In this document: positions 39,255-64,000 of the stretch, in pieces | Layout: each line of letters starts with the position of its first letter | Numbering within the stretch: position 1 is the stretch's first letter | Assembly: GCA_040954595.2 (NCBI GenBank) | Contig: CM082579.2 | Location: forward strand, 4,832,879-4,896,878 | Origin: Balanoglossus misakiensis | Taxonomy: Eukaryota; Animalia; Hemichordata | DNA length: 64,000 bases | Direction of reading: 5' to 3' | Position numbers and translations under genes: made by a program | Notes under the pieces: model-generated | Database searches by the model: none | The model's input: the letters and a program-made list of their open reading frames with translations, nothing else | Told to the model about the DNA's origin: nothing

Positions 39255-42200
39255 TTATCGGCCCGTTGTCCCGGGAAACGTCTTCTCAGTGTCCGAATCC
39301 AGCGGCGTCAGGCAGTAATTCGACAGGCTACTGTGAATCCCGTGAAATGTCGCCCTCTCGCTGGGGTCGAATTTCCAGCAGCTGCTCATGACGTCACGGA
39401 CCCTCGCCGGGCAGTTCTCGGGCGCCTGGAGGTGGTCCCCCTTAAAGATGTCATCAACGACTTGCTCGTCGCCCAGGTCAGCGTACGGCATTGCCCCGTA
39501 CGAGAAAATCTCCCACAGTGTCACTCCGTACGACCAGACGTCGCTTTCTGTGGTGTACGCCATCTTTTCTAACGACTCGGGCGCCATCCAACGAATCGGC
39601 AACATTTTGCGTCCAACCTGAACGACAATGGAAACAGTAGTGAAAAGGTTGGGTACCATGAACGTAGAATCTACCTTATCAAAGCAATTTGCCACATACG
39701 TATAAAGTCCATAGTTAATAATCCATATACCAACAAGAAGTAAAACTAAAAATATGAAAAAAAAACTTGACTTACTTTAGTGTATTCCTCTGGATGTAAT
39801 TCCCTCGCCACGCCTAGGTCAGCCACCTTGATTGACAGATCACTGGACACCAAACAGTTTCTCGCAGCTAAGTCACAATGAACAAAACTATTAGATGCAA
39901 GATATGACATGGCGCATGCAATCTGCGTTGCTATGCCTACGAGTTTGTCTCGATGCAGTGGTACCGACAGCTGCAGTTTGGTGGCGTCCTTCTCGTGGGA
40001 TGGCGAGCGAGCGTTCAGGAACTGCTTGAGGTCCCCATACTCGGCATACTCGTAAATGATGGACAGCGGCTGGCCGAAAGTAATCACGCCGAGCATTTCT
40101 AGAACGTTCGGGTGCTCCAGTTCACACATGGCCGACACCTGCCCGTCAAACGACTGTCGCGCATGCGCGGTGGCGTCCTGCCGCAACTCTTTCACCATGG
40201 CAATCGCTGGAGGGTGTCCCGGGAAGAGGCTGTCGATCCCCGCCAAGTACAGGCGCCCGAACCGACCGGTGTGTAAATCCCTGACGTGTCTGACGCTTTC
40301 GCGGGGAATCTCCGTCAGTATTCTCACAGTGGAGGCGCCCTCGCTGGCCTCCGGATAGTTGTACTTGCACACGCTCTCGACGGACGAGGACGCCGCCTCC
40401 GGATCCTGACTTTGCGGGACGGGGATGAACTTGCTGAACTTGACCGTCTGGAAAGGGGCCAGCATATCTCGCCTCGGCAACATGACTTTGCAGACCAGGG
40501 TGCAAACGCCGACAATCGTCACAATGGCGCCCGCTACGGAGGAAAGAACGATGATGATCACCATGCTGCTTTCTTTGTTCTTGTCTCCAAGGTGGTCTTT
40601 TTCCCCTCCGTCACGATGAGACTCCAGTGGCGGCGAATCGATACTTCCACTATCGTCTTCTCCGGTTACACATGAAATAGTTTGGCCCGCTGGAAACAAG
40701 GGAATATATTATAAGCTTACTCATCAGTTCGAAAGTATCAATCTACATGTAATACGACTGTAAAACTGTTTAAACCACAGTTTGTGCAAAGCGGCCATTT
40801 TCTATTTACTTACACATTCTCTATAACACCATTTCTTTCATCCTTGATAACAAATTCGTTGTACGAACAATTTAGCATGTGTTAATTTCTCACCCAATTT
40901 ATACGTAGAGATCCTGAAGCTCTTCACGTCACTAAACGGCCCTCGTCCAACCTCGTTCAGGGCTTGAATCGAGAACTGGTACTCGTCCAGCGATCTCAGC
41001 CCCTCTATGGTCGCCGTCGACGCAGTCTCCATGGTTACGTGGGGAAATGGGGACGACTCACGGGCGTCGATTGTCTTGATCATGATGTTGAACTCTGGCA
41101 GCGACCGACCCTCGTTGGAATGGCCGATGGAGGGCGGTTGTACCTTGCTGTCCCCGGTTACGCCTTGTGTTGGGTACGACCAATGGAGACGGATGCTATT
41201 GCAAGATCTCGTCTCGATGTGCACGATTTTTGGCTTTGTGGAGGGAGCTGAGCATGGAAGCAAAGGAGACCGTTACTGTATACTAATTCAGTGGCTTGGC
41301 TGATAGGTAGGATAAATCCTTGTTTGGATCAAAATAAGTCAGTACCCTGACCGGGCCACCCAACTATCTTGTACAGAGATCATGATGTGGCAACTTCTGT
41401 CTGTATAGGACAGTCAGACCTGAATTCATTTCCAGCGGTGCCAAATTTGCCATATGGTAACTCCTGTTCGACGAGATTTCTCGATCCACATGAAGTCTGA
41501 ATTAATTGATTAACACAACTCACCACACGTGACGTCATGTTTTGTAAGGTCGGTGATTGGCCGTCTTTGGGAGTTTCCGTTCGTGCATTTGATAGTGTCC
41601 CCTCTGAGAAGCAATACGTCATCGGCGTCTTTCAGCCATTGGGCAAACTGGAGAACATCACAGTTGCACTGCAATGAGTTGTGATCTAAGGATCTGTGAA
41701 TGAAAGGCGAAAAGTTTATCGCTGATTATTAAACCCGAAAATACCAACAGAGCTATAGGTATGAGTGTCCACGCTTTTATTAACGGACTATTGAATGTCC
41801 ATACTTACATCAACCTCAAAGAAGTCTTGGAAAGTTCGTCGGCACTGTGTTTAGCGAGGTCGCGTAGTCTGTTATTGCTCAAGCGTCTGAAACGATAGAC
41901 AAATGATTATGGCGTTAGTACTACATGTATACGTTTCTTCGAGATGCTTATACAAATACCAACTTAAAACCGTCACTGACCAAAAATGTGCGAATAAAAT
42001 CAGAAATACTTACAGTTCATACAAATACGGCAGATTGGAAAATAATCCGATTGGTAGGAAAGATATGCTGTTGTGGTCCAAATAACTGTAAATGGGAACA
42101 TAAGCAAATATGAAGGAACAGTTGGACATAATCATGGCATGAATTTGAAGAATTGGAACATATTGTCGTCTGCCAAAAAAGTGAATCTAAAGAATAGTTA

Positions 42201-45200
42201 ATCAATTATGCACGTCACGATTCTCACACACTTTTTGCAGATGAATAATAACGGGAACACTAATCAAATGACTTCATCCCAAAGTCATATTTCTAGCGTT
42301 ACTCATTATCTGGGGTTTGCGTAACAGCAGCTGCGAGAAAATGATGACTGATCGGTGCTTGGTATTTATTAGCTTTGGTTGAGTAGACCGGGCATGATAT
42401 AAATACGTGTTGCATAAACAACTGTCAATTGCAATTTAAAGTTAGAAACCCCTCCACTAGGAAATACTTACAGATGACGCAACCTGGATAAACCTTTGAA
42501 TGAGTTTTTGTCCAACCAGCTTATACGGTTCTTTTCTAAATACCTGAAAGAAAAATATCATTTTACATATTTAATTGTCTTGTCTGAAATCCTACCAAGT
42601 GAACGAAAGAAAAACAAGAAGGCGGGATGGGCGATCTGAGAGTAGTGACTGGTGTGACGTCACCAAATAATCGAATTGGTTTTCGACACCTGTTTACTTC
42701 ATGGCGCTACCGTGATTTATGAAGACTGTTCTGCTTTTCCTGAAGAATTATTACACATACTGACAAATAAAATGGCGAACATATTGTTCTAGAACGTCGG
42801 TGATAAGAAAGAGGCTCTCTGGAAAAAAAATATTGGGGCGTGACGTATAGAACTTCAGTTCTAACCCCCGTGTATTGTTTGTGGGTGAATTTAGTGTTGG
42901 CTCGGCAGTCTTTTATATGCACAAAAGACGGAGTCCAGCTTTGGAGGTTGTTTTGCTTGGCCGTCTACCAAATTCAAAATAAAGCGGTCTGTGTGCATGG
43001 TTCGGTGAATGGAAAATGGGTAGAGTACTCGGGGAGCCTACAGACAAATAACCACAGACTGCTCGTGTGCCAGTGGTGACGGATTTTAAGATTATTTTTA
43101 ACTGCGTAGTAATAGCGAACGGGTGACGTCTCCAGAATGTTTGTGTAATCCTTTCAATCAAAATCAATAGGCGAGGATATTATGAAAGAATTAGCCACCT
43201 GGTAGCATGCCCTGGTTTGTCTCGTTGAAAATGATGGGGTCATACGTCCATTATGTTAGCGGAATGCCACACTGTTTACCCGAAACATCACAGTACGACT
43301 CGCTGTCCGGTATCATATGAGAACAGAAACGTAAACACTCTGGTGAATTTTTTTTTCACATTTGACGAAAACAAACAGGTCACCGTGGGAGAACTTTACT
43401 TACATCATATCTGATATAGAATTAATACTTACAGTGACTCGAGGTTTTCCAGCGAAGCGAAGACGCCGTTATCAATTCTGTTGATTCTGTTGCTGCTCAG
43501 GTCACTATGTGAAGAAAAAAAGGGGAAATTGGTCTTTAAAGAAACTGAAGCTGTAACTTATCATAATTCTTTCAGTATTGTGTTCTGTGTGTCACCTACA
43601 GTTTCTTGTTCTACTCTCTACATCATGTTGATATGCCAAATGTTTAGCTTGTCCCCGCAGATTATGCATTAACAGCAAATTTTAGTCCGGACTAAAATTC
43701 AAATGTCAACAATAACATGACAATTTACAAGCCAGCATACTATGTTGAGGAGCTCGATGCTTGGCACTTAGACATGTTCTGGTGGGTAGAACAGGGAACA
43801 GTAGTTTTTACATGTATCTGGTCAATATATAAAGCTGACAATTATGCGGTAGAGTAGAAACAGAGACATCTGAACGATCGTTCACAGAGCTAATTCAGGA
43901 TTACAGGGCTTTTTGCAGCCTGTTTTCATGAACTCCAGTGGCCTTTACACTGTGTTTGCATTCGAGTTATTCTATCCATGTGACCGCGGAGAGAAAAACA
44001 GGAGAACACGCCGGCCAGGCCGCGAATTGGATTACCGAGGGGCTTTGTATTGTCACTGAAAAGGCACTTCACGTCAACAGGGCTTCAAGGGGCCACTGAA
44101 CAGAGTGTGTTAAGAGACCGCGCGAGGACGTCTTTTGACTCTAAATGCCATCATGCATGTAATGACGCAAATGACATGGAGTGCCTTTCGAGTTTCTCCG
44201 TCCACCCCGGTCATGGACGCGCGTCTGAGAAGCTACGTGGACACGTACGACCAGAGAGCTACGTGTGCCCAGGAGGAAAGTGGGTTACTGTGCCGTGAAA
44301 GACAGTCCTTGTCTCGGAGTGACCCCAGACCCTCGACATTTGTGTTTTGCCTCGTTTCCACGCGTACGAAAGGAGTGAGTGTAAGTCATCTGTGGTACTG
44401 CACTGGCCATCCGAATTCTACACTCGCGCGACAGACATAACATATCAAATAATAGAATTTCTAGTTTGTACTGTAGCCCTGGTCTATATCGTCTAAAAAA
44501 ATTACAATCACAAACGGAGATAGATAAAACTCTCCGCTTAGAATGAAAAGGCCTTTGTTTTACACGCGGCATTCATGTACTGCAGAAAATGGATCCATAC
44601 GAACAAGCGTCAGTTTTGGCAGTCTCCATTGAATTTGGTTCATAAAAAATGAGAATTCATTAAGACTAACATAATTAAACAGTGTGAACTGATTTCATTC
44701 ATCTGAGCTAATATTAAAGACGAACATCGCTCCATCTGCCCCGATTTTCTTTTGCCACAGAAGATTTTACGTTTTGCTTGAACTGTTCTGCATTGTCTTT
44801 CTGTTGCGGTGGCGGTAACATATATGGCCTGGGGGCCACAAAAACAAAGGCAGAGTAACACGTGCCCAGCAACAGAGTGAACGCCACGGCATTCTCTCTT
44901 CAAGCCCACGACAGATCTGTAAGTGAGAGAAACCGTCGTCTTTCTGCGGGAAAATGGTACAATTTGGAGTACCGTGAGGTTTCCAAGGGAAGGCATCTCG
45001 TGGGAACCAAATTAGCCTTCCATTGGTTTCGACGTGGATAGAGTCACGCGGCAGTATGTCGCGCATTCCCTTTGGGAAAATGTCTGCACAACGGAGGCCA
45101 CGTGGCGATCTCTATTACAGGCATTTTATGGGAATTGTATGACATGCATCCTCTATGATGCCACTTTCACCGACATGACTCCGTCGGGCGGCGGCAGCAA

Positions 45201-48200
45201 GCGGCCACCTCTCCGCCGATCGCGTGCTCGCGGATCCGACCGCGGCGAGCGAGACAATCGAGCGCGGGCAGAGTACGCGTCAAGTCGGCACGTCCGGCGC
45301 TCGTCGCCTTCTTCTGGCCCGTTCCAAAGACTCGCACATCTGCAGAAACTTCGTTCGCATTTCGGTTTTCTTCAAAAACACATACACACACACAAAGGGG
45401 CACCAACTCGTAATTCATCCACGTACAAGCGATCGTCCGAGACAGGAAAGTGAGCAACAATTTCCAGGACGGAGCGCACACACGTGCTTGCAACGATCGA
45501 CTTTCCAGCGTACCTGCATGCGCGCGTCGCCTTTGAGGCCGTAGCTGTGGGAAAATTGCTCAGTCGCGGGCGACACGAGTAAACTCGCCACGGGAAATCG
45601 ATTGCACGGACCTCGCAGCTTGTCTGGAGGAAAAGCGTGGCCTAAACCAGCGCCGCAGTCACACCCTCCCTCTTCACAGAAAATCGGCGGCCTATTTGCG
45701 CAAAGCTTCATGAACTTCTTCAATATAATGCAAAACTTCCATCGCCGTATTCCCTCAGCCGATTTTGATTATTATATTTGAATGAGGTAGAAGCCCATTA
45801 TGTTTGACTTTTGAGGTAAATCAGCTGGCTGGCTGAATAACACCTCATGAAGTTACTTTAATTTACACCAGAACCTTTTTAACCACGGCGATTTGTTGCA
45901 GACGCTTTATAAATATCTCCCTTCAATCGAGCATTTACAACGTTTTAATTAATTTTACACCAAACAGCCCGCGGGCATATTTGTCATCCCACAAATGTTC
46001 CCATACGAAACATGAAACGAATTAGCAAAGCGCATGCTCCGAGCCTCGTTGGTATTTGTAGAACGCCGTGTGTCGTGGAACAGCGAGGGGAGAAAAAGCG
46101 GTCATTATTAATGGAAGTCCGTTATAATCACTCAATATACTAGGCCTAACGGTGGGGGAGTGAGATTTGCTCCACTTTGTGACAGATGTTACGGTACGTC
46201 TCCCCAAACCCATTAATTGAAGTCACTTTGGCGTTTTATTAAATTCTCCGAGTGAATTAGGGAAGTATAAATGAAATTATTGGGCCAATATTGAACAGAT
46301 GCCGAAATTAGGAACAGATGGGAGTTCGACGAAAAAAAAATTGTCACCGGGTAGCGAGTATCAGCATGATGTCCGTTATTTTAGAATTACACGGTCCTTT
46401 CGTATTGTTTCGCTGCGCTGCGCTTGATGACGTTATTTGTCATTTTAATGACTCGCTCTTCGGTTTTCCCGCAATAACCGTTATAGTCCATTCACAATCT
46501 TTAAAGCACATCCACTCACGTCGACGACACTGTTGAGCTTTTTTTAAGAATTAAAGCCCCAGTATTTCTAACTTTTGGCTATTTTTTTCGATATTTGTCT
46601 ATCATATGTCAAGTCATGTTTCTTTTTCATGGATTCTCAACAAAGCATGAATATAAAAGTCAAAGGTGGAGTTATTGGATTTTAATGTGACCGAGGTGGA
46701 AAGCGAGTTTCTTCACCGGAGGGGGTATGATGCTGCCGTATTATAAAGTTGGAAACGTCACGGTCGCGCACATGTACGCTTCACCATCTTGACTGTACTT
46801 TATGGGCAGATAATTGCGGGTTATCCGTGTCTTTCTCCATCAACGTCGCCAATAAAAGCGGGTATGTCCATAGTAAGTTGTCCGGTTGTTAAATGCGGGT
46901 TATTTCAGGCTTTAAAAGAACGCAAGGACGTTGGTCGGGTGGCTCGGCCGGGTGAACAATCGCGCTGCAGAAGATATTCATTCTCCGGATGTATAGTGCG
47001 CGGTAGTGGCAGAGCGCAAGCGTGTGTCCGCGGTTGACGCGGGTACCCGCATCTCGAAATGCGTAATCCCACACGGTATAGATACAGCTCTAGAGAATAC
47101 AGACTGAGACACAAAGGTGTCGAAGATCTAAAGGGACCCCCACACTGGGTCGTTCTCGAGTGGTTCTTCACTATAACAGGAGTCACTTGAAGTTACACCC
47201 AGTGTGATGACAGAATTCACCGAAAGTACACACCACTTATATTAGGCACTTTCGGAAAAGTTGGTCAAATAGCCAAAGAATTCAAATACAGTGTCTGTTT
47301 GCGCATATCAGATTCTGTAGACCTTTAATAATGATATGGTTGAAGTTGAGTCTGCATCGCGACTTGAGAACCAAAGCGTTCTTGATGATCATGTTTCACC
47401 GGCGACTTTCGCAGCTTAAAATCGACCATCTCACACATATTCAGCGTCGACGCGACGCCTTTCAGATGCTTTGGGATTCGAGATTCGCCAGGGTGTTGTT
47501 GGAGGGGGATTACGACGCTGCGCGTGCGCGGACTGCGCTGTGATGAAGAACGTGAATTAAATTTGTCAAAGTACTTACAGCACTTTCAACTGGGTAAACT
47601 CGGCCAGATCGCCCACTCCGATTTCACCGATCTCGTTTCCTTGCAGAATTCTGCGAACAAAAGACAACAATTCAGAAACACCCTCGTATCATTGTTACCG
47701 GATAATCTCGACAATTATTGGGGCCCACATCGCAACTACCGTCGACATTCAAAGACGACCCGTCGCCGAATATCGCGGCATGTTCAAGTTCTCACAGAAC
47801 TCTCACATATGAAAGCTGCCGTGTAGGAGCTAATTAATTTCTTCGCTCTCACAATGGAGCTAGGCCCTTAACTTGTTCGGCATCATCGATCACGTGACCC
47901 AGAAAAAGCCGAAAATTATTGATTTGGCACTTCAAACACTTATACGTGAAACGGTTTCTTTAGATATTGTGAGTAGAGCGCATACAAAGAGTTCTATTTG
48001 CCCAAAAAATACTTTGCTAAGGCGGTGTGAAAACAATGCCCCTACCCCGAAATTTGATCGGTATTTTTTGTATATAGGCATTGAAAGTGAAAGAGTTACT
48101 GACTAAGCTTGTAGAAAGCAGCATGGTAGATCGGGTTTTTTTTCTCTCGTCTTTGCAATTAAATTACTCCCAAACCGTCTATGAAATGTATAATTAGGCC

Positions 48201-49217
48201 GCTATGCAGCCAAAAATACTAGCGCCCCAACAACACACGAAGACCAGCTTGTGGAATTTTGGTGCAAATTTGGTTTTTGAAGAAACCGACAGCAAATGCC
48301 TTCAAATTTAGTTCACCAAGTCCTTGAACCACATAAACGGCAAGAGAGCAACACTTTCCAAACACTACTTGAAGCTTTTTTTCAATTTAAAGTGACACAA
48401 AGCCTTTAGCGATTCACTTTTGTGTTGTCTCGATGGCAGAGCGGCATACCCGTTCTTGGTTCTATTCTTACTTTCACTTGATAAGTGGCTGGGCTCATTC
48501 TGCACGGACAATGTAAACGCGGGGATGCCGGGTATAAGCTGTGAAAAATCACGACCGTGGTGTAAACAAGAGTTTCACCGAATGGCGAGCAGACTAAACC
48601 AAAAGTTGATTTCGATTATCCCGTCCGTGCAAGAGTCGACGGAGCGTTGGGAACTCGCCGCGCCAACAAAGTACGTGTAGTCTGTAAAGTTCAAACCTCG
48701 GCGGTGGCGTGGGAATTGTCAAAAAATTACTTTTCTTGGGTAGACAGTTGCACACGTACACTATGTACTCAATGCTCCGTCCGTGAAAGTGGTGCCCAGT
48801 TCTATCGCTTCGGGTTCAATTTGGTCATTTCAACTCGCCACGGACCTTATTACGCAATTTTATGCCCCGCTGCCATAGTAACCTCTTTGACTTCGCCCAA
48901 TTCGTTTCGCGGCACATTAACACATTCCTCGCGGTAAACCGCTGACAACTCTCAATTTCAAGGCGTGGAGGAACTCAGATTTGTTGTTTGTATAAACTGG
49001 GTGTTCATACTTACAGCTGATGGATTTGCCGAGGAAGACCCGCCGGTATGTTCGTGAAGGAGCCTCGGCAGATAACAGCCATCGATGAATCACAGATACA
49101 TCCAAGGGGGAGGCTTGAGCACCAAGTCGTCGACGACGCCGGATCGGCGAACATTAACGGGGCCAGCAGCAGCGCTGGCAGTAGCGTCGCTCTGATCAGT
49201 TTTGCCCGGTCCGTCAT
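39255..49217 (-). CDS. LRR-FN3 receptor tyrosine kinase (~765 aa) with a Trk/ROR/MuSK-group kinase domain, degenerate (non-RD, possible pseudokinase)
   Basis: Frame-consistent model of 2298 nt: 49217-49015 (signal peptide and LRRNT CSSLPLGCIC), 47650-47579, 43504-43433 and 42543-42472 (72-nt LRR exons, e.g. DLSSNRINRIDNGVFASLENLESL), 41886-41809, 41693-41524 (LRRCT NSLQCNC..FAQWL), 41247-40894 (FN3: SIRLHW..GLRSLDEYQFSIQALNEVGRGPFS), 40689-39776 (TM and kinase: HCDLAARNCLV, ADLG), 39617-39255 (LPIRWMAPES, SDVWSYGVTLWEIFSYG). Extra LRR exons in the large introns cannot be excluded. Confidence 0.9.
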
Positions 49218-52500: not shown

Positions 52501-53567
52501 TGTGCCTGACACGCACATGTACAGAGAGACAACCGCTCCAGTCTACCGGGATTGAATCCACATCGACCACCCAACTGAAGGTGAGGGTATGGGCGAAGGT
52601 GAAAGAACTTTAACTCGCTGTTTTCACAGAATAAGCAGCACAGCGAACTGAGTACACAGCAGATGCGTGAAAGCGTCTTTGTGTTTCGGTTTCCGCTGAT
52701 TTATTCACAGTGATCTAACGGTGAACGCGGATGAACTTCATCATTGGTATTGACCCCGTGGAAAGGTCGAGTTTATCGAGTAAACGACTGGGTTGTGTGC
52801 ACATAAAGTGTACTATAGGCTGTAGCGTTTGTACATTTGCCTGAACCAGGGCGTTTGATTGAAATGGGCGGTGACCGATTTAAGTGAACCATATAAATAT
52901 AAATCGGTGCACCGTGCACCGGGTCGGACATGGACAAATCTCTGCTAGGTACAGTAACTAGTCAAGTGCGCATAAAGGCTTCGAGAGAAAGCCAGTAAAA
53001 TAGAGTCCTTTGTTCGTGTGTTTTATAAGTGTTCCGACCCTCGGTTGTAAAACAGGCTCTGGCTATAACGCAGAGTGATCCGCCCCTTTGACCGAAGCCA
53101 GGCACGGAGACTGTCCTAATATAATTAAGAAACATTAATGTTGGCTGTTGGGTGCTTAGTTGTGCTATTGCCCACCGTAGTAACCGCGACGCGGGCAATG
53201 ATTTATTTAAATATACGGTGATCCTTCGTATTGTAACCTTCCAACCCATGGATATTAATAATAGTAATAGTAATAGGCTTACAACGGCCCACTTGTAAAC
53301 CCGTAAAATGTGCGAACATGGAGGCCACTGGGATAAAATGAGCGGTTGGAGATTGAGTTTGTAGTAATATTATGGTTTTCCAAAGTTTTTTTTTGTAATA
53401 TTGTTATAATAGAATTAATGAAAATCAATGTATTAGCAATTATTTAAACGATTGTCGCGTGACGTGCGCCTTTATGGTTTCTGGTTGAAATTTGTGGTTA
53501 ATAATGACGCTCTGTCTCTCTCTCCCTCCCGCTCTCCTCCTCCTCCTCTCCTCCGAGCAGTGGCAAC

Positions 53568-56363
53568 ATGGACAGTACAACAGCCGATCAGGCGGGATGT
53601 GTAACCTGTACAAATTGTACCACACTCGTGCTGATAAGTGTTTTTGCCACGGCTGCGACGTCAGTGGTGCTCTGCCTGCTCGTCTTCTGCTGTTACCTGA
53701 GAAGGCACAGGTCTGAACGAGTGTTGAACGTCAATGACGAGGAAGGCGTGATCGCTACTACCCTGGAGGAGACGGGACACGTTGCGGTGGAATCCCAGAA
53801 GCCGCTTCCCGGCGCACGTGGCCGCATGAACACCGCGTTCGAAGGGGAGGACGAGTCTTCCAAAACGATGGTGGCTTTGGTGAGCGAGAGGAGATGCGAC
53901 GATACGGGCAGAGACGAATCTCGGGCCAAATCCAATACTTATGTCAATTTGACTGACGTGAAGCGCGATATTGTGGGACGTGAGACCTTGAGAAAAATTG
54001 AACTGAACGAAAAAGAGGCAGCGGCAGGTGGGAAAATGGTGGAACCCGACTCGGTCGTCAAAACTGAGCTGTCGGAAACAATGGCGCTCGTGACAATCCT
54101 CGGTGAATTCGGTAATGGCCAGGAAGGGTCGGAAAGACCTGCTTCAGAAGAGGTTCGTGGTAACGAAATTAAGCGCACAAAGATCAAAAGGCAGGTTAGC
54201 TTTCCCAGTGAGCTGATCCAGAAAGACGAGGAGGCTCAGAAATCGGCGCAGGCTGCGGAGAAGAACTTCAGTAAAGGCGGCGACGCGTTGGAAAGCCCTG
54301 GCCGAGAAACGACCGACCAAGAACAGCCCGTTGAGACTGAAACCGCGGGCAGTGCGAAGGATGGACGGACCAGTGTTTCCAGCGTCGCAGACATGGTGCG
54401 CATGGAAGAGGAACGTGTGAAATCGAGGAAGAGTCAAGGCGGGATCTTCGTTGCAGACGAGGACCAAGATGAGCAGGCGGACAGCGGGATCGACGATGAA
54501 AACCGAGTTAAAAAGAGCAGCCCCAATGAACAAATTGGAAGCGAGGTTACTGTGATAATCCAGGGTGCGGATGAAGACGCAGGCTCCAAAACGACCCCTT
54601 CTTCAGAATCCGGTCACGTGACGCCCGAGCAACCCACAGAAACCGAACCAGTGGCAACTGTAGAGTTAAGGCCTTTGCCGACACCTCCGTCTGTTGCTGA
54701 ATCTGAGAATAATCTGATATCTGCGGTTACAGACGAGGGAGCCGCCGATCAGGCTGACCGGAAGCAGGGGTACGTGAACCTAGATTGCAGGGAGCAAGAA
54801 ACAGACACTAATCAGGACGATGCTCTGTATGACCCCCTGGATAGCCTGTCGGAGGACGATGAGGTTTTCAAATCTCCTGCTGGGGCAACAGACGAGACAG
54901 CCGTCGAGCCCTGTGGAGAGTTTTACGAAGACATCGACATCGACTTGCTTCCCGGCGGGAATGCAGACGAGCGCAAATCAGAGAAATCGAAAAAGGGGGA
55001 AAAGACTGACAAGAAGGGGACGCCGAAGGAATCGAAGAAGAAAAGCAAGAAGGAAAAACGCAAATCACGCTCATCAAAATCAGAAGACGAGAAAGGGTCG
55101 GGTGAGGAGGAACAAATCAAAGTCAGAATTCAGGATCGGCCATTGCCGTCAATAGAGGGCGCGGCTCCCAGCAACCAGGCTGGCGAAGTCTATGACGGAC
55201 TGCAGAGCGATCAGGACGCCGGAGAATACACGCAGTTGGACCGTAGATCGATGATAGCCGAGGGCGGGGAGCTTTACGACGAGCCTATTAAAATACAGAC
55301 TGAACTTGGAAACCAGAGTGGCACCATCACTGACCCTGGCCACATTCCCTTCATGGACACGGCTTCAGAAAGTTCCAGCGGCGACGATATGATTTACGAA
55401 ACGATCGACGCATCGGTCGTCCTCGTCAACAAGAACCGAATCAAAATCGTCGATATGCCGACCGCGTTGGGTGGGACAGCGCCAGCCAGGGACGATACAA
55501 CTCCTCCAAAGGGCCGCGGTGTCTCCGTTAGACGCAATTTCCAGGTGAACCGTCCTGATGATGATGGTACAGATTTGGGGAAAATCAACGTGGCCTCGAT
55601 GATCGGATTATACGAAGTCAAACCAGATATCTCAGACAGCAGTCACGATTACATTAACACGGGGAAGCTAACCAACCCATCGAAGAAACCGCCAATCCCA
55701 GAGGGTAGACGTAGTCTGCACGAGGCGGGCCCAGCAGTCGACACCGCCTCGACATCTCAAACACATGTTCCGGCGAGTGGCTCGCTCAAGACGAAGATAC
55801 AAACCCCGTCCCCATACACCAGTAAAGATTCTACGCCAAAATTCGGATCTACGGTACAGCCAAGTAAGAAAGTTCTCGTCATAGATAAAACTGACAGAAC
55901 CACGCCATCATCCGAACATGTAACGAATGAAAAGGGGCCTGGCTTGACGCGACAAGCTCCCGAAAATGCTGAGCCAGGCGGCAACCTAAGCCACGGCGCT
56001 GCGCCCGCCAGACAGCAAACGCCTCAGAAGGACACATCTCCGCCCAAAGGGAAGTTTTCCAGGCGGAAACAGAAAGACGAGGATTTAGAAAGCATACAAT
56101 ACATCAGCGTGGCGGCTTTGATCGGCGGCTTCGATAAGAAGCCGGGCGGAGACCATCGCGACGCGGATCGCCCGGGCGCGGGCAAGAATCTCGACAAGCT
56201 CGGCAGCAGCGCCAGCACCGTCGGCCGGCAAGATTCTGAGATTTCGCCGGTGAAGCGGTCTCGTCCGGTGAGCAGCGTCTGGCCCCAGGCATCCACGGTG
56301 TCTCGCGTCACCGAAGGCGGGAAAAGGCCGACAAGCGTTGTCATCATAGAGAAAGACAAGTGA
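53568..56363 (+). CDS. Type III single-pass transmembrane adaptor-like protein, paralog 1 (931 aa, ITAM-bearing)
   Basis: An uninterrupted 2.8-kb ORF preceded by a polypyrimidine tract and CAG acceptor at 53560. Short Cys-rich N-terminus (CVTCTNC), TM LVLISVFATAATSVVLCLLVFCC, basic YLRRHR, then an acidic disordered tail with YVNL x2, YDPL, YEDI, YDGL-x8-YTQL, YDEP, YETI and YIN. Confidence 0.88.
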   Translation: MDSTTADQAGCVTCTNCTTLVLISVFATAATSVVLCLLVFCCYLRRHRSERVLNVNDEEGVIATTLEETGHVAVESQKPLPGARGRMNTAFEGEDESSKTMVALVSERRCDDTGRDESRAKSNTYVNLTDVKRDIVGRETLRKIELNEKEAAAGGKMVEPDSVVKTELSETMALVTILGEFGNGQEGSERPASEEVRGNEIKRTKIKRQVSFPSELIQKDEEAQKSAQAAEKNFSKGGDALESPGRETTDQEQPVETETAGSAKDGRTSVSSVADMVRMEEERVKSRKSQGGIFVADEDQDEQADSGIDDENRVKKSSPNEQIGSEVTVIIQGADEDAGSKTTPSSESGHVTPEQPTETEPVATVELRPLPTPPSVAESENNLISAVTDEGAADQADRKQGYVNLDCREQETDTNQDDALYDPLDSLSEDDEVFKSPAGATDETAVEPCGEFYEDIDIDLLPGGNADERKSEKSKKGEKTDKKGTPKESKKKSKKEKRKSRSSKSEDEKGSGEEEQIKVRIQDRPLPSIEGAAPSNQAGEVYDGLQSDQDAGEYTQLDRRSMIAEGGELYDEPIKIQTELGNQSGTITDPGHIPFMDTASESSSGDDMIYETIDASVVLVNKNRIKIVDMPTALGGTAPARDDTTPPKGRGVSVRRNFQVNRPDDDGTDLGKINVASMIGLYEVKPDISDSSHDYINTGKLTNPSKKPPIPEGRRSLHEAGPAVDTASTSQTHVPASGSLKTKIQTPSPYTSKDSTPKFGSTVQPSKKVLVIDKTDRTTPSSEHVTNEKGPGLTRQAPENAEPGGNLSHGAAPARQQTPQKDTSPPKGKFSRRKQKDEDLESIQYISVAALIGGFDKKPGGDHRDADRPGAGKNLDKLGSSASTVGRQDSEISPVKRSRPVSSVWPQASTVSRVTEGGKRPTSVVIIEKDK

Positions 56364-58873
56364 GCGGAGAACTGCGCTTCAAATGTCTGAATCATAGATC
56401 TGTATTCATGCCTGCCTGGGGGAAAATCCCACAAAGGCGGCCATGTTTCAATGTTTTTCAAAAATCGACCAATTTGTCACTAAATTTACTACATAAGTAA
56501 CATAAATATTAAGATGTTATAAACTTATAGTTGCCATGACAGGATGAGACAAGAAAAATATAAAATTAAGACGTCAATCGGTCGAAAAATTGAGCAAAAT
56601 TTGTTCAATCACTATGGACTGCAGGCGGACTGTGTGCCTGCATTAATATATGACAGGTCTAGCTTCATACACATGTTATATTCATTGTACTACTTAAAAT
56701 GACGTGTTTTTTCGTAGCTCTTTTACAATGTTATCTACCATGAAACAGTTACAATATTCTGATATTTTGAAACGTGCATACCAGATACGTTTTTTATCAA
56801 ATAAGATGAATATATAATGCCTTATAACTTGCCTATAATAACCGTAAAAGTAACACCAGAAGTCTTATTAAAAGGTGGCTTCAATGAAAGTCCATTGAGT
56901 AATTTGAAATCTTAATTTTTCTCTATAAAACATTTTATTCCATTTAGATCTAGCATTCAGGAAAAATATAAAGAGTGAACCTTGAGCCTATATTACTGTA
57001 CAATGTACACCCGTCCTTTTTCTTAAATTTCCGAATTCCATTTCCCCGTATCAAAGTCGAAACAAAACAAAATCGTTTTGAATAGGAAACCGAGACACAC
57101 TCACGGGTACAAATGTACTCGGCCGGATATCAATTCGGTCTGCGACTTTCTTCACTTCATTAAATGAACTTGTTGGAACGAAGAATCAAGTATCAAGCAG
57201 GAGTAAGTGGGGGGCGGTTACGTTTTACCTGACAGACCGGGGGCGGACCCCGATTGCCTCTGGCCCACTCCTCCCACAATAAATGAACGTGCACAGCCGG
57301 GGTAGAAGGATACTTCTAATTGTGTGTAATGAGTCTGTAGTGAGGACTTTGAATGGAAATGGATCTGTGATATATTGGTGTGCTGGTCACACGTCATTAT
57401 GTATCTCTCCAAAATGTGCAACCACATGTAATGTCCAGTCACTGTGGAGTTTACTAATTTAATAAATACACATCTTAAACCGTCTTCTGTCTGCCTCCAT
57501 GTATATCTTGAGTTAAGTGCAGTGAGTCGACACTAATCGTGGACGAAATTAAAGAAACTCCAAGATCAATCTGTCTTTGGTCTTTCTTGTTTTTTCTTCC
57601 TCCCATAAATGTGACGCCATATAGTAGTCTACTGTATTCAGTATTAGATGCTCGACCAATTCACACAAACTTTACCTTTGGCGTTAGACAGCTGCTACAT
57701 TTTCCTCGTTCTTGAAATGCCTTCACGTTTCTTTTCAATTTATCATGTGTAAACACGATGAAGAGGGTTTCTACTGTTTGTCCCAAGGACGAACGTTAAA
57801 AGTAGCCTGAGCTGACTTACCGACGTGTATAGAGAAGTCTGGTCGCTATATTCAAGAATCCCTGACTCCTACTCAAAAGTCACACATCCCGATCAATGGA
57901 AATGCTTGGAAGGCATTGAGGATTTCGAGTTGAAAAATACAACACGAGACACCGACTTCCAATATATGGCACACAGGAATCACGGGGCCTGGCGACTGCC
58001 ATTTTTTCTGCGCACGCGCCATATTGGACCCTGGTCATTCTGTAAGGACTACAGTCACGGGAGAAACTGGCCATGCGTATAGAACAGAACATTATTCAGT
58101 TCTGACACAACGGTAGAGTTTACGTTCATTCCTCAGTAAAACAGCCTACCCACCACCGACATTCGGATATCTGCAGCTGTGTGCATCCAAGTCGTTTGCT
58201 CGGAAAGGTGAGTTTTCTCATCAGCGAAGCAAGTAGTCCAGGTGCATGGTATAGCCAAGCTAGTACCCTCCCTCTACAAAAGGCCTCTTGCGCAATTTGC
58301 GAACCCAGACTCACTTTCACTTTTATCAACCCATAAGTTGCGACAACGCTGTGTGTCTTGAAGCAAACTCGCACAACTAATATATCACAATGCAAATTGT
58401 AAAAAAAGTAGTAGATATATTCGGTGGACAACTTTGATGTAGTTCTCGAATCATTGTGTGCTGAGGCGTTACTGTAAACAATGGTGAGCTATGATATCTT
58501 ATACATCATGCCATAGCAAGCTTTATGTGTTGGCCTATTACCTATTGAAAAATGGTGCCGTGTCGTGCACGGAGCAATGTCCGTTGTAACACGCGGACAA
58601 TGGGTTTGCATAATGCTTCTTGAGTACAACGATGTTGGTTCTGCCCTGCTTTGAATATTTCTCTGAGATGTTTGCCATAAAAAGGCGAAATGCGTTCTTG
58701 CTTTGTGCGTTCGTTTAGTCAGGTTTTATCGCAGTATTTATTTTCATTTCGTTGCACGTTGGCTGCTCTCAATGATTACTATCTCTCTCTCTCTCAGGCA
58801 AGGTGAACTAGAGGCCACAAAGTGAACACGGACCTATCACGACATCATTTATCCGCTAATTGAGGTTGTCGTC

Positions 58874-60688
58874 ATGGAATTAACAACACACACAGCATTG
58901 GCAGGGAGAACGCCGTTTGATTGTTTGGAACGCTGTACCTTGATTATCTGTCTTAGTGTAGGTGTCAGTGTTCTGGTGGCGGTGCTGCTTTGTGTCGTCA
59001 TTTTCAATTTATACCTGCGACGCATCTATGCCACATTCGAGAGGACGTTGGATACAGTTCGCCGAGTGAGGAACAACACGCTGTTGATGAGTATTGGTCG
59101 AGGAAATACGAAGTGTGAGTTCGGTGGCGTTGCTGTCAGGAGACCGATTGCGGCCGAGGTGGATACGGGGGCGGGTCCTGGTCGCCGTGACCACCGCAAA
59201 AGAACAACCAAAACGGAGCGTTACGAAAACTGGGTTGTTTGTGGGCGTGAAACACTGGGCGTTGAAAACACAGGTGGTAAACAATCACATGAGAACAAGG
59301 CCTATGTGTCCGGAGACGATTCGGCAGTAGTGGAGGAACGCGGACGGCTTGGCCTCCAAGCTTCGGCTACAACGGTACCACGTAAAACCCATGGCACTGC
59401 GGTTGCACCGTCTGCGGGAGACACGCAAGACGATGTTCCAAGCGGGGGGGAATCGGTTCCGCAAAAGAAATCTGCTGATTCTGCAGAAGAGGACGACAAG
59501 ATGAGAGCGCGCAGTTTGGCAGCTGAAATTCACGATCGCCGCCCGCCATCCCCTGATGGGGACGACACTTCCCTCGAAGCGGAGGACGACTACACAGGTA
59601 TACAGCCGGAAGCTAGAGACTACACGAAGTTGGATCGTACTACCATGATAACACGAGGCGGCGAGTCTCAGAAGAGGCGAAGGGGATATGCAGATCTGAA
59701 GCCCGGACACCCGGATGTCGCGAACACTGCTGCACGTGCAGTTGAGAGAAAGAGTCAGTTGAGCGATACAACTGGGGCGTCGGTTGAGGCCACGAAGAAA
59801 GCACCCTCGCGGTCGACTTTCGCACAAGACGATGATATGGAAATCAAAATAAACATAGCGGACATGATTGGAGTATACGACGCCAAGAGCTGTCGTCCCC
59901 ACCCTTCCCAGAAGTCTCTGTTGATGGAGCCGATGAGCACAGACGGTGCAGCCAACACGAAAGCCATGAAAAGCCCGGGCTTCCGAGCAAGCTTTGATCT
60001 TGCCGACGAAACATCAGGTTCCGTATCTCGGAAGGGTAAAGCCAGTGATCACCAAAAGAGCGACGCCGCAAATCAAAACATACCTGCGCCAAAAGCGGGG
60101 CTTACCCAACAGCCAACCAAGAGCGCTCTCTTCCCGAAAAGGAGCGAAAGTAGCCGTCGAGACGAACACGGTTCGCGAGAAGTCAAAATAGTGGGTTCGC
60201 GGGACGTCCAAAAAGTGGGTTCGCCGAAAGCCAAAGGAGGCCCCGACGATTTCAAGAAGGGAAGTTACAGCCTACCAGCAGAGAGTGTGGCAACAGCGGA
60301 CACTGCGACCGTGACGTCGACAGGTCGAAGACATATGTCGAGGATGTCATCACTGAGGAAGAAATTATCCTTGCGAAAACAGAGAGGCGGGAAAGAGGAT
60401 AACTTAGACGGGTTAAAGAGCGTAAATGTGTCAGCACTAATAGGGGGCTTCGACAAGAAGACCGGTCGCAAGGGGCGCTGCTACGAGGTGAACGGTCCAA
60501 GTAAGCGTTCTCCAACTGAGATCAGAAACGGCGGCAGTGCCATCGACGGACAGTTTTCATCGATTCCATCAAAAGAGAATGTTCGCCCAATGAGTACCGC
60601 CTTGCCAGTGACATCTTCTAATGCCAGTCAGAGACAAGGGCGGCCTGTTTCAAAACCAATAAACGTGTTCATTATAGACAAGAAGTAA
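58874..60688 (+). CDS. Type III single-pass transmembrane adaptor-like protein, paralog 2 (604 aa, ITAM-bearing)
   Basis: An uninterrupted 1.8-kb ORF with a (CT)n-CAG acceptor at 58797 and an in-frame TGA at 58823 upstream of the ATG. TM LIICLSVGVSVLVAVLLCVVIF followed by YLRR; YTGI-x6-YTKL. It shares GRETL, KIN[IV]AxMIG, ALIGGFDKK and a C-terminal VxII[DE]K block with paralog 1. Confidence 0.87.
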   Translation: MELTTHTALAGRTPFDCLERCTLIICLSVGVSVLVAVLLCVVIFNLYLRRIYATFERTLDTVRRVRNNTLLMSIGRGNTKCEFGGVAVRRPIAAEVDTGAGPGRRDHRKRTTKTERYENWVVCGRETLGVENTGGKQSHENKAYVSGDDSAVVEERGRLGLQASATTVPRKTHGTAVAPSAGDTQDDVPSGGESVPQKKSADSAEEDDKMRARSLAAEIHDRRPPSPDGDDTSLEAEDDYTGIQPEARDYTKLDRTTMITRGGESQKRRRGYADLKPGHPDVANTAARAVERKSQLSDTTGASVEATKKAPSRSTFAQDDDMEIKINIADMIGVYDAKSCRPHPSQKSLLMEPMSTDGAANTKAMKSPGFRASFDLADETSGSVSRKGKASDHQKSDAANQNIPAPKAGLTQQPTKSALFPKRSESSRRDEHGSREVKIVGSRDVQKVGSPKAKGGPDDFKKGSYSLPAESVATADTATVTSTGRRHMSRMSSLRKKLSLRKQRGGKEDNLDGLKSVNVSALIGGFDKKTGRKGRCYEVNGPSKRSPTEIRNGGSAIDGQFSSIPSKENVRPMSTALPVTSSNASQRQGRPVSKPINVFIIDKK

Positions 60689-63114
60689 CCCAGATGCAAC
60701 CTGGGAAAATCACAGAGACTTAAATTTACGTACTAAGCATGCTTCGTGAGAGGACATATTGACTAACCTATTCTGTGATATTTTTTAAGCATTTGACATT
60801 CAATGAATCATGTCTTTCAAAATTGGTGTTAACATGGGGGTGTGGTTTAATTAACATTTTCTCAGTTTCTCGTTTTGACCCGTTTTTGTTGTTTCATAAA
60901 CAGTGCGGCGGGACGACAGTTATACAATGTACCTTTTTAAGAAATTTCCCTAAATCCGCCCTTTAAGAAACAAAAACAAACTGATAGACAGACAGAAAGA
61001 CACTTTCGGTAGGCCTGCTATACACAAGGGCTGAAATGCTCGCCATGTCCCTAAGGAAAAGTGAAGATTTCTCGCAACTAGAGTCCTAGCTCAGATACAA
61101 AGAGAAATCTTGCTCTAATTGTCTGGACCCTCACTGGATAGACACAGATTCGCCAGTTGGCATTTGTACAGATGTCACCTCGCCCTTAAAAGAAAGCGCA
61201 CAGGTCATGTGACCGTCTAATAGTAGATGTAACTATTTGCTTTGGGGAAACAGCCCTTATATTTTCTATAAAAAAAAACGACTCGTTCTCAGTCGACGCT
61301 ATGAGCATGGAGCGTGTTATTCGAAAGTTTTATTCCAACACAAGATAGCACGGGAATTCCCCAAGACCAAACTCCGCTTGTCTATGGACTGAGGCAGGTC
61401 ACCCAAAGTGCTAACTTCGCCTCTGAAATGCACATTTAGGGTTCAGGCAACTTTTCTATTCGGGGCGTGTAACGAAATACTCTAAGAGACGCTGCTGTTG
61501 TTTTTTTCCTCCCTGTTTCCGCGTTCTTTTCTTTCAAACCCCTGCTTTCAATCATCTATTGATTCCAACGCGTCCCCGCCTCACCTTTCTTTGATCTATG
61601 AAGAATACCAGTGCGCATGACCAAAAAGTCAATCAAACAACCAGACCATGACAATGGTAAGAAGAGCCCACCTGGAAGAAAGGTATATTTGTATTTGTAT
61701 AAAGCAAATCGAACTGTCACTGCTTTGCTATTGGTTCAAGTAGTCACCCTCCCGAAGGATTTCCTCAAAGGAAACAACTATCTCTCTGAAGACGTCGGTA
61801 TAAGAACAAGAGCGTCCGAAACAGAACGCAGCGGACGACCGATGTTGTTGAGGCGGAAATTTCTTGATGCCACGGTGAGTTAGTCCTACTATTTTGATTA
61901 AAATATACATTTTGACCAGAAATTCTTTTCATTCGAATATCCATTGCAAGTGAGACCACGGTCACTCCATGGTGAGACATTGTAGGCCTAGTGTGTTCTA
62001 AAACTGACCAGGTCCGTTGTTTTCACCTACTGAGTACCCTATATAATTCCGGTCATCGTTATACAAAAACAAACAGGGCTGGCGATTAACACCCAGCCAG
62101 AGCATCGCAACTCTTATGTGATGTGATGAAATACGAGATATTATACATGTACATCATTTGTAAACGGTGGAGTTGTGAAAGAAAATGTTACGGGTAAAGG
62201 CAATTGCGCCGAGCCGCACAGCGCCGACAGGTGTGGTCGTAGTTTCAGTTCAGAGCGGGTGTTGTGACTAGCGCCCGAAAACTCACGCCACGGTCTCGCG
62301 TTATGAACTCGAATGGTAATCACGCTGGCATGTCGTGAAAACGCATGACTCCTTCGTGGCGTGCAAGCTTACAGGACCCCAGACAATAGGTTTACTTTTA
62401 AAGGGTTCTTAGATATTCAGAAACTCTTTCGGGGCCGAAAATTTGAAACATTCGAGATGAATCGCACATAAAAACTAGATGGTTCAATCACGTGACGAAT
62501 TTCTAACATGGCGGAAGTAGCAAGTTTACTCGGAACTAAGCTCTTTCAACGGGCCACGGCCAGAGTGACTGTAAACGGGCACACAATCAAATGTTTTCAC
62601 GTCAGTACAAATAATGGCGTATAAGCTAACCCGGTGACCTTCTGTCAAAGCTCGACTGCGCTCCAGCACAATTGGTCACAGCCACACAAAACAAAATCGA
62701 TCTGAACAAAACTGCTGTCAAAAGAAAAGTAACCTGTGACCGAATACAGGTACGCTCAGCCGACTTCCTTATGGGCCGACGTTTATTGAAGGTTGATATC
62801 CACTGTTGTCGGTTTAAGACCTGAACTCAATCTGACATCTGATTTTCCAGTTGATCCATTAAAAAACGCTGGACAAATAAGGCCCAGTGATCATTTGGCT
62901 AAACAGTACCGAGACATTCTGACCCAGTTTTGTGTTGGTGTTCTACAAAGGCTATGTGTGATGCATGTCGTTGCGAGGGCGAAAATTGTCGACGTCGACA
63001 GCTTTAAAATTGTTTTGCGTAGCTTTCTTCATTTGCGATTGAACTCGACTGTTTGGGGATTTTTTTTTACAGACTAGATATCAAGTTACCTTGGCTACAC
63101 CAGTGAAATAAACT

Positions 63115-64000
63115 ATGGCTGGATGGTACACGACCACCAGGTGGCGTTATCCAACGTCCCCGAACACCCCATCAACGCCATTTCCAAGAATAAACACGAC
63201 AACACCAGCGTTCACTGAAAAATGGACGACTGATGACCAGGCTGGTTCTTGCGCCGGTTGCCGATGTGAATGCAACACGGGAGGTGCCGTGGCAGCCACT
63301 TTTTGCGTGACGCTCGTGGTCACGGCGCTGGTTTGCTTCCTTCTCTTTTACTTGTACTTGAAGCGGTACCGGCCGCGGGGTCCGCGAGGGCCCTTGCTCG
63401 GTGACGACGAGAGCAAACCCGCGAGAATTGAGAAGTTGGGCGCTGAAGGACGGAACAACCAAGGAGAGGTTGGCGGCGGCGGCAATGATGATGGTATAAC
63501 CAATAACGTTTTCGTTGACGACGAAACAGACGCGCTCAGCGGCCTCCAAGAGCACGGTGCAAAGAGAAGGAATGAAGAAAAAACAAAAGCCGCAAACGAA
63601 GCTGTCAAAGACGGCGCACTAGTCGAAAGCAGGTCGCCAGATGGCGCCGGCGAAGGAAAACAGAGCATACCGAGCAGGCTGAAGGGACTCGTGTTCAAGC
63701 AAAAAGCAAAAGAGACAACCGGCGCGGAAGACAAAGGAACAAAAGTTAGCCGTATCAGCGAAGGCAAAGACAAGTCAGGAACCGAGGGAATCGATGTCAA
63801 ATATGCCTCGGACAAGAACGCCGACGATCAATTGTACGAGGTGCCGGTGACACTACCTGAACCCCCTGCTGAGAAACCGGCGAACAGAAATAGGAAAGCG
63901 AAAAGACACAGCAACGTCGACGCAAAAACAGATCTGGGGTCCATATCAACGACCAATCGCGAAACAGAGAAAGAGAAAAGCAAGACATTGCCGCAGAAGG
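63115..64000 (+). CDS. Type III single-pass transmembrane adaptor-like protein, paralog 3 (3'-partial, at least 295 aa; absent from the ORF track)
   Basis: ATG at 63115 follows a T-tract acceptor (63072) and an in-frame TAA, and the frame stays open to the window end: MAGWYTTT...TTDDQAGSCAGCRCEC-TM(VAATFCVTLVVTALVCFLLFYL)-YLKRYR...NNVFVDDE...LYEVP. TTDDQAG matches TTADQAG in paralog 1. Confidence 0.8.
   Translation, partial: MAGWYTTTRWRYPTSPNTPSTPFPRINTTTPAFTEKWTTDDQAGSCAGCRCECNTGGAVAATFCVTLVVTALVCFLLFYLYLKRYRPRGPRGPLLGDDESKPARIEKLGAEGRNNQGEVGGGGNDDGITNNVFVDDETDALSGLQEHGAKRRNEEKTKAANEAVKDGALVESRSPDGAGEGKQSIPSRLKGLVFKQKAKETTGAEDKGTKVSRISEGKDKSGTEGIDVKYASDKNADDQLYEVPVTLPEPPAEKPANRNRKAKRHSNVDAKTDLGSISTTNRETEKEKSKTLPQK

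Follow-up and report, generated by a model that had tools for sequence, protein, structure and literature searches.

Acorn-worm transmembrane proteins with a conserved ITAM in a long multi-tyrosine tail: an apparently undescribed tandem family of candidate signalling adaptors

A stretch of 64,000 nucleotides from the acorn worm Balanoglossus misakiensis (GenBank assembly GCA_040954595.2, contig CM082579.2, positions 4,832,879 to 4,896,878 of the forward strand; the whole stretch is referred to as the window) contains three tandem genes on the plus strand that encode single-pass membrane proteins with long cytoplasmic tails. Paralog 1 (P0001, 931 aa; 53568..56363) is a single uninterrupted open reading frame (ORF), paralog 2 (P0002, 604 aa) occupies 58874..60688, and paralog 3 (P0003) is an ORF with its first 295 codons at 63115..64000, open at the window end. 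A preliminary description of this DNA had presented them as three tandem plus-strand paralogs, each with its visible coding sequence in one exon, and the ORFs and BLASTP comparisons bear this out. Paralogs 1 and 2 matched each other at E=6e-14 (residues 497-929), and the matches of paralog 3 to paralog 1 (E=4e-7) and to paralog 2 (E=4e-5) were both restricted to the transmembrane (TM) region; blastn found no DNA-level similarity among the three at E<=1e-3. The tails had been called mostly unalignable by eye, whereas alignment gives five or six shared blocks. A 24-bp tandem repeat of 2.3 copies lies within paralog 2, at 60170-60224.

An exhaustive phmmer search of 1.84 billion representatives returned two proteins, both uncharacterised gene models of Ptychodera flava, an enteropneust hemichordate (acorn worm): P0004 (XP_070553536.1, 633 aa) and P0005 (XP_070554707.1, 417 aa). 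A third P. flava model, P0006 (XP_070553472.1, 1101 aa), falls in the same cluster as P0005. The latter matches residues 1-412 of P0006 almost perfectly and stops before the ITAM (immunoreceptor tyrosine-based activation motif) described below. P0006 is likely the orthologue of paralog 1, as indicated by BLASTP (E=1e-33) and by the middle blocks that the two have in common; in the YxN block and at the C-terminus, P0004 is nearer to paralog 1 than P0006 is. The four-way comparisons below are those of paralog 1, paralog 2, P0004, and P0006. Paralog 3 and P0005, which end before the ITAM region, were excluded from them, and P0007 (53 aa), which is in the cluster but not visibly related to the others, was excluded from all alignments.

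The exact sequences of paralogs 1 and 2 were absent from the protein collection searched. Pfam gave no match for the three window ORFs at E<=1 and nothing above cutoff for six family members at E<=10, and a PDB profile search gave a single chance match (E=0.54). Word-index homologue searches with residues 480-931 of paralog 1 and with paralog 2 returned nothing but are insensitive, as P0004 itself was missed, and a profile search with the ITAM block returned P0004 alone, which is one of the profile's own inputs. Given the insensitivity of the word-index searches, the family may range more widely. The look-alikes suggested by the ESM Atlas, poxvirus A36R, LIME1, and C1orf185, had feature scores all below 0.9 and structure matches with TM scores of 0.13-0.29, and were treated as leads only. 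The literature searched, mostly open-access and largely represented by abstracts, held no description of the family or of an invertebrate ITAM adaptor without an ectodomain. These results suggest a real, conserved, and apparently undescribed family, known to date from acorn worms alone, and support the lineage-specific character proposed in the preliminary description.

A single hydrophobic segment lies close to the N-terminus of each of the three window proteins; it is followed by YLRR, YLRR, and YLKR in paralogs 1, 2, and 3, respectively, as had been reported, and then by a polar tail. For paralog 1, the extracellular part contains a CxxCxxC motif (53598..53618, +), the last Cys of which, C17, is the invariant extracellular Cys of the family (6/6 aligned rows), and the TM helix (53619..53693, +) has no charged residue and ends with C41-C42, a candidate palmitoylation site. 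For paralog 2, the TM helix (58937..59011, +) is also free of charged residues. For paralog 3, the ectodomain is Thr-rich, contains four Cys, and is ~55 aa long, so that the tiny ectodomain ascribed to all three proteins does not hold there; its TM segment lies at ~63280-63360 and a YEVP motif at 63835 (+). None of the five TM segments examined contains a charged residue. Hydropathy and sequence inspection thus gave no signal peptide, a short ectodomain, one uncharged TM segment, and basic residues after it, which are the type III features of the TRAP class of adaptors. The tail, which is predicted to be disordered and has many tyrosines, YxN sites, and no folded domain, also agrees with this class. 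In the raft subclass of these adaptors, palmitoylation occurs at a juxtamembrane CxxC.

The claim of a Cys near the end of the TM segment held in part. The TM segment is single, and a Cys at its cytoplasmic end is clear among the window proteins in paralog 1 alone, since the last Cys of paralog 2 and that of paralog 3 lie inside the helix. P0006 has CCCCC at the position of the CC of paralog 1. Palmitoylation would therefore not be family-wide and is probably a feature of the paralog-1 type. The AlphaFold model of P0004 is confident for the TM helix alone (mean pLDDT 37.8, with pLDDT <50 in 575/633 residues), and a homodimer prediction for residues 1-55 of paralog 1 scored 0.09. The TM helices of paralog 1, P0004, and P0006 (53619-53693 and homologues) share a Ser/Thr pattern, SVxxTAxxSV, on one face, along which a dimer or a partner receptor might pack.

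A pyrimidine-rich AG lies shortly 5' of all three ATGs (53559-60, 58796-97, and 63071-72), and the Kozak context of each ATG is good, with a purine at -3 and G at +4. In paralog 1, the pyrimidine tract and a tandem AG acceptor (GAG/CAG; 53540..53560, +) are located 7-10 nt 5' of the ATG, suggesting that an upstream exon, probably untranslated, is likely. The strong acceptor so close to this ATG, with no in-frame stop between them, would also suit a type I receptor, in which upstream exons of paralog 1 or of the whole family encode a signal peptide and an ectodomain. In paralogs 2 and 3, however, in-frame stops separate acceptor and ATG and thereby fix the starts. All three P. flava models start at the equivalent Met, and none of 85 upstream frames scanned had a Pfam match above the curated cutoff, a search that short exons can escape. 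We regard the type I receptor as very unlikely.

The tails of paralogs 1 and 2 each contain one ITAM. The ITAM of paralog 1, YDGLQSDQDAGEYTQL (55191..55238, +), has a spacer of 8 residues, and that of paralog 2, YTGIQPEARDYTKL (59591..59632, +), has a spacer of 6 and a Glu at position -3. Translation confirmed both patterns where the preliminary description had placed them. The pattern Yxx[LI]x6-8Yxx[LI] occurred nowhere else in the three window ORFs; the visible 295 codons of paralog 3, a gene open at the window end, contain none. In 20,000 shuffling trials, such a match arose in 0.41% of the shuffled tails for paralog 1 and in 0.21% for paralog 2. The ITAM consensus is Yxx[I/L]x(6-9)Yxx[L/I] in the accessible text of PMC9546547.

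Exactly one ITAM pattern was found in each of the four members that span this region, with spacers of 8 (paralog 1), 6 (paralog 2), 8 (P0004), and 7 (P0006), at a tail identity among members of 17-27%. The motif is located ~190-730 residues from the membrane. Only 18 of the 364 ungapped four-way tail columns are invariant, and these include the ITAM residues Y542, Y554, and L557, R559 two positions further on, and Y125 and N127 of the YxN site; all six were invariant in three MAFFT modes. In addition, column 545 reads L/I/L/I, and column 540 (position -2 of the first Tyr) and column 553 (position -1 of the second) are acidic in 4/4. The accessible text of PMC6994640 gives Asp or Glu three residues before the first Tyr as an ITAM criterion; three of the four proteins have such a residue at -3, and position -2 is acidic throughout. 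Neither half-site is preceded by a hydrophobic residue at -2 (0/4 proteins). Failure of orthologues to keep both tyrosines and their spacing had been named beforehand as evidence against the proposal, and both are retained in the cross-species homologues.

In paralog 1, the ITAM belongs to a conserved module of ~45 aa (55125..55265, +), which consists of an IxDRPLPS block, the ITAM, and an LDRxSM extension. Of the stretch from IxDRxxPS to GGE reported as conserved between paralogs 1 and 2, P. flava shares both tyrosines and the final Leu, but neither the Gly of Y-x-G-[LI] nor the GGE. These comparisons indicate constraint on the ITAM. Directly after the ITAM, 4/4 members have a basophilic Rx[ST][MI] site (55239-55253), which is a possible Ser/Thr phosphorylation switch.

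YVNL (53940..53951, +), a Grb2-type YxN site, has its Tyr and Asn invariant in 4/4 full tails; the corresponding site of paralog 2, aligned with Y125 of paralog 1, is YENW (59222..59233, +). Paralog 1 also has YVNL at 54771, YDPL at 54828, and YEDI at 54924 (54771..54935, +), the last two of which are kept in P0006, and YDEP at 55275, YETI at 55395, and YINT at 55650 (55275..55661, +), all three tyrosines of which are kept in P0006. By consensus, YEDI, YETI, and YDEP are likely to attract SH2 domains of the Src-family and Nck/Crk type. Between paralog 1 and P0006, 8 of 12 tail tyrosines but 1 of 12 tail Phe are kept, compared with 27% identity for all residues (Fisher p about 0.004). Over the four tails, which are homologous and hence not independent, YxN occurred 12 times versus 2.05 expected (3 in paralog 1, 1 in paralog 2, 1 in P0004, and 7 in P0006) and Y[DE]x[ILVP] 11 times versus 2.06. 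The ITIM (immunoreceptor tyrosine-based inhibitory motif) pattern was not enriched in these tails (3 versus 2.27 expected), nor were the RVxF, PxxP, and YxxP patterns. The YxN enrichment supports the earlier proposal of LAT-like docking sites and fits the LAT/NTAL type. The C-terminus of paralog 1 is a conserved strand, PxS(V/I)xII(E/D)K(D)K (56328..56360, +); its core V[IL][IV]I[DE]K occurs once more internally (~55872-55890) and is kept in P. flava.

Many single SH2 sites with enriched YxN are also what a phosphotyrosine scaffold that serves adhesion or receptor tyrosine kinase signalling would display, by analogy with FRS2 and Gab. In such a scaffold, the paired YxxL would not bind Syk but, for example, SHP2, PLC-gamma, or a pair of independent SH2 domains, and the membrane-distant position of the ITAM and a conserved block that exceeds the ITAM in length would fit this as well. 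A candidate kinase is encoded next to the cluster. An LRR-FN3-TM-tyrosine kinase receptor gene (39255-49217, minus strand) lies head-to-head with paralog 1 on the opposite strand, 4,351 bp from ATG to ATG, with a signal peptide and LRR cap exon at 49217, LRR exons near 47646, 43500, 42539, 42081, and 41882, an LRR C-cap near 41680, and FN3 at 40838-41269. The kinase domain is closest to MuSK/ROR/Trk. Compared with MuSK, however, Gln replaces the alphaC Glu, HCD replaces HRD, and DLG replaces DFG, and because of these changes the kinase may be impaired; the head-to-head arrangement may reflect coincidence or partnership. The spacers of 6-8 residues fit the ITAM consensus (PMC9546547, in its accessible text), and the half-sites do not have the hydrophobic -2 residue of ITIM/SHP sites. 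The kinase scaffold is the main rival to an ITAM adaptor, and we consider it unlikely. Elsewhere in the window, an 88-bp satellite of 196 copies (99% matches) fills 1-17259, exons of a fibrinogen-C-like protein lie at 28118-29131 (+; weak Pfam match, E=3e-4, just under cutoff), and an exon of a secretin/adhesion-family 7TM receptor (36216-36674, +; PF00002, E=1.5e-8) is convergent with the kinase gene.

A further repeated element, which the preliminary description did not contain, is the block [VI]xx[ML]IGx[YF][ED], found twice per complete protein. It starts at residues 675 and 848 of paralog 1, 328 and 519 of paralog 2, 384 and 544 of P0004 (the latter copy ends in Ala), and 912 of P0006, whose sequence stops within the second copy. 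The copies are VASMIGLYE (55590..55616, +) and VAALIGGFD (56109..56135, +) in paralog 1, and IADMIGVYD (59855..59881, +) and VSALIGGFD (60428..60454, +) in paralog 2. The block resembles VxxLxxxFE, the F-actin motif SFM, which according to the accessible text of bioRxiv 2025.04.16.649135 requires both V (P1) and F (P8); VAALIGGFD reads VxxLxxxF-D against the published VxxLxxxFE. V at P1 and F at P8 with a hydrophobic P4 in a disordered context were found in one copy in each of the four full tails, versus 0.50 expected in total. The Tyr of VASMIGLYE is Phe in P0006; because Tyr or Phe occupies the same position, the aromatic residue is probably an anchor rather than a phosphosite. Like the SFM, the blocks have V at P1, L or M at P4, and F at P8, lie in disordered sequence, occur in two copies per protein, and are conserved across species. 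Unlike it, they have D or A at P9 in copy 2, Y at P8 in copy 1 of three proteins, and Gly at P6. Actin binding by these blocks is conceivable, at slightly less than even chances.

These blocks suggest a structural role, and the Tyr pair might instead be a double YxxPhi signal for endocytosis or sorting, on a membrane protein that is anchored to the cytoskeleton and recruits no kinase; both halves fit the YxxPhi consensus. A sorting signal, however, leaves the invariant YxN site, the acidic flanks, and the retention of 8/12 tyrosines in SH2-type contexts unexplained, and can be given very little weight.

The best explanation of these features, to which we assign a probability of roughly 60%, is that the acorn-worm proteins are stand-alone transmembrane adaptors, that is, convergent PAG/LAT-like scaffolds that recruit Syk or Shark together with Grb2. 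Adaptors of this sort are familiar chiefly from the immune cells of vertebrates. We infer the following course of events from the motifs and their conservation. Clustering with a separate ligand-binding receptor would be the trigger. Because no TM segment has a charged residue, coupling to this receptor would occur by co-clustering, as in LAT and PAG, rather than through a charge pair of the DAP12 type. An ITAM acts when both of its tyrosines are phosphorylated and it binds the tandem SH2 domains of Syk/ZAP70/Shark. Here, a Src-family kinase would phosphorylate the tail tyrosines that lie in acidic contexts, the ITAM would recruit Syk or Shark, and the YxN site would recruit Grb2. In proteins of the paralog-1 type, the extra sites would recruit further SH2 proteins of the Src-family and Nck/Crk type, and palmitoylation is a likely further feature. 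The two SFM-like blocks may hold the scaffold at cortical F-actin. The proteins may well work in phagocytes or in immunity, at about even odds.

Several observations weigh against this explanation. The comparison covers two species. Paralog 1 has Gly, not an acidic residue, at -3 of the first ITAM Tyr, with Glu at -2. The confinement of the spacers to 6-8 residues is weak evidence of selection on spacing, because small indels are the commonest kind. The conservation extends beyond the ITAM, to IxDRxxPS upstream and L[DN]Rx[ST][MI] downstream, and could thus reflect a different, more extended partner. Of the 12 tail tyrosines of paralog 1, P0004 and paralog 2 keep 4 each, which is not significant alone (p 0.11-0.23), and P0004 has no Cys at the TM end. 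As for the SFM-like blocks, the strict motif VxxLxxxFE had no match in five tails, including the four full ones (0/4), the relaxed pattern was drawn up after the sequences had been seen, and the blocks have a high Gly content.

A more specific form of the adaptor explanation, which we consider doubtful, is that acorn worms independently evolved an all-in-one chain: an adaptor without an ectodomain, in which an ITAM functional for Syk/Shark is joined by Grb2 sites of the LAT type and by anchors that bind F-actin directly. In phagocytes, it would signal on behalf of other proteins that act as recognition receptors, perhaps among them the kinase-impaired LRR receptor of the head-to-head gene. Vertebrates divide these jobs among FcR-gamma/DAP12, LAT, and cytoskeletal linkers. 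If this were true, the division of labour between receptor and adaptor would not be unique to vertebrates, and an ITAM adaptor without an ectodomain would mean that the split between recognition and signalling, which is a hallmark of the immunoreceptors of vertebrates, arose as well in a deuterostome that lacks adaptive immunity. The natural spacers of 6, 7, and 8 in one family also form a series for the spacing tolerance of tandem SH2 domains.

Among known systems, PAG1/Cbp is similar in topology. According to the accessible text of PMC2213442, it is a type III protein with no signal peptide, an ectodomain of ~16 aa, an uncharged TM segment followed by basic residues, and a long tail with ~10 Tyr; its ITAM-like pairs bind the tandem SH2 domains of Syk/ZAP70 in vitro, although the authors saw no direct interaction. 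PAG is therefore a partial precedent for ITAM-like motifs on a TRAP scaffold. Its spacers (14, 14, and 26 in that text) differ from the 6-8 of the acorn-worm family, it has a CxxC palmitoylation site that is not family-wide in the acorn-worm proteins, no homology between them was detected, and the SFM-like blocks are a feature of the acorn-worm proteins. The identical topology would suit a highly diverged true orthologue of PAG1, LAT, or LIME1, and LIME1 appears among the language-model look-alikes, but its score of 0.80-0.81 is at chance level. The lack of any Pfam match above cutoff for the six members and the phmmer result, two P. flava proteins only, speak against orthology, as does the gene structure of LAT/NTAL, with 11 exons versus one coding exon in the acorn worms, and we consider orthology highly improbable. 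The accessible part of PMC3492796 makes no mention of an invertebrate PAG. The resemblance to the vertebrate adaptors is likely convergent.

LAT and NTAL/LAT2 share with the acorn-worm proteins a tiny ectodomain, a single TM segment, and several YxN Grb2 sites (five in NTAL); they differ in being substrates downstream of separate ITAM chains and in having CxxC, 11 exons, and much shorter tails (PMC2196071, in its accessible text). The acorn-worm proteins have the ITAM in the same chain and their coding sequence in one exon. The LAT/PAG-like palmitoylated type III topology of the preliminary description thus stands as to type III; family-wide palmitoylation does not, given P0004, and homology to LAT, NTAL, or PAG was not detected.

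FcR-gamma, DAP12, and CD3-zeta likewise have an ITAM without a ligand-binding ectodomain and an extracellular Cys, which in the acorn-worm proteins would be a putative site of disulfide dimerisation. These chains use a charged TM residue for receptor pairing and have a short tail with a membrane-proximal ITAM, whereas the acorn-worm proteins have neither a charged TM residue nor a signal peptide, and their tails are 550-1050 aa with a membrane-distant ITAM. Pfam showed no match above cutoff to these families. The label FcR-gamma/DAP12-like is thus apt for the motif and not for the chain type, given the uncharged TM segments and the ~190-730 residues between ITAM and membrane; because no TM segment has a charged residue, the acorn-worm proteins are not DAP12/FcR-gamma-type subunits.

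Invertebrate membrane proteins with an ITAM include Hydractinia Alr, oyster CgIgR, amphioxus ITAM-R, and Drosophila Draper. Draper has an ectodomain of its own. In the accessible parts of the reports, Syk is recorded in sea urchin, sea star, and amphioxus, oyster Syk binds the ITAM receptor CgIgR, and amphioxus Syk binds and phosphorylates the amphioxus ITAM receptor. In the same material, Alr and CgIgR have Ig-type ectodomains and ITAM-R is called TCR-like, and the invertebrate ITAM proteins described are receptors with their own ectodomains, whereas the acorn-worm proteins combine an ITAM with a membrane anchor that has no ligand-binding domain.

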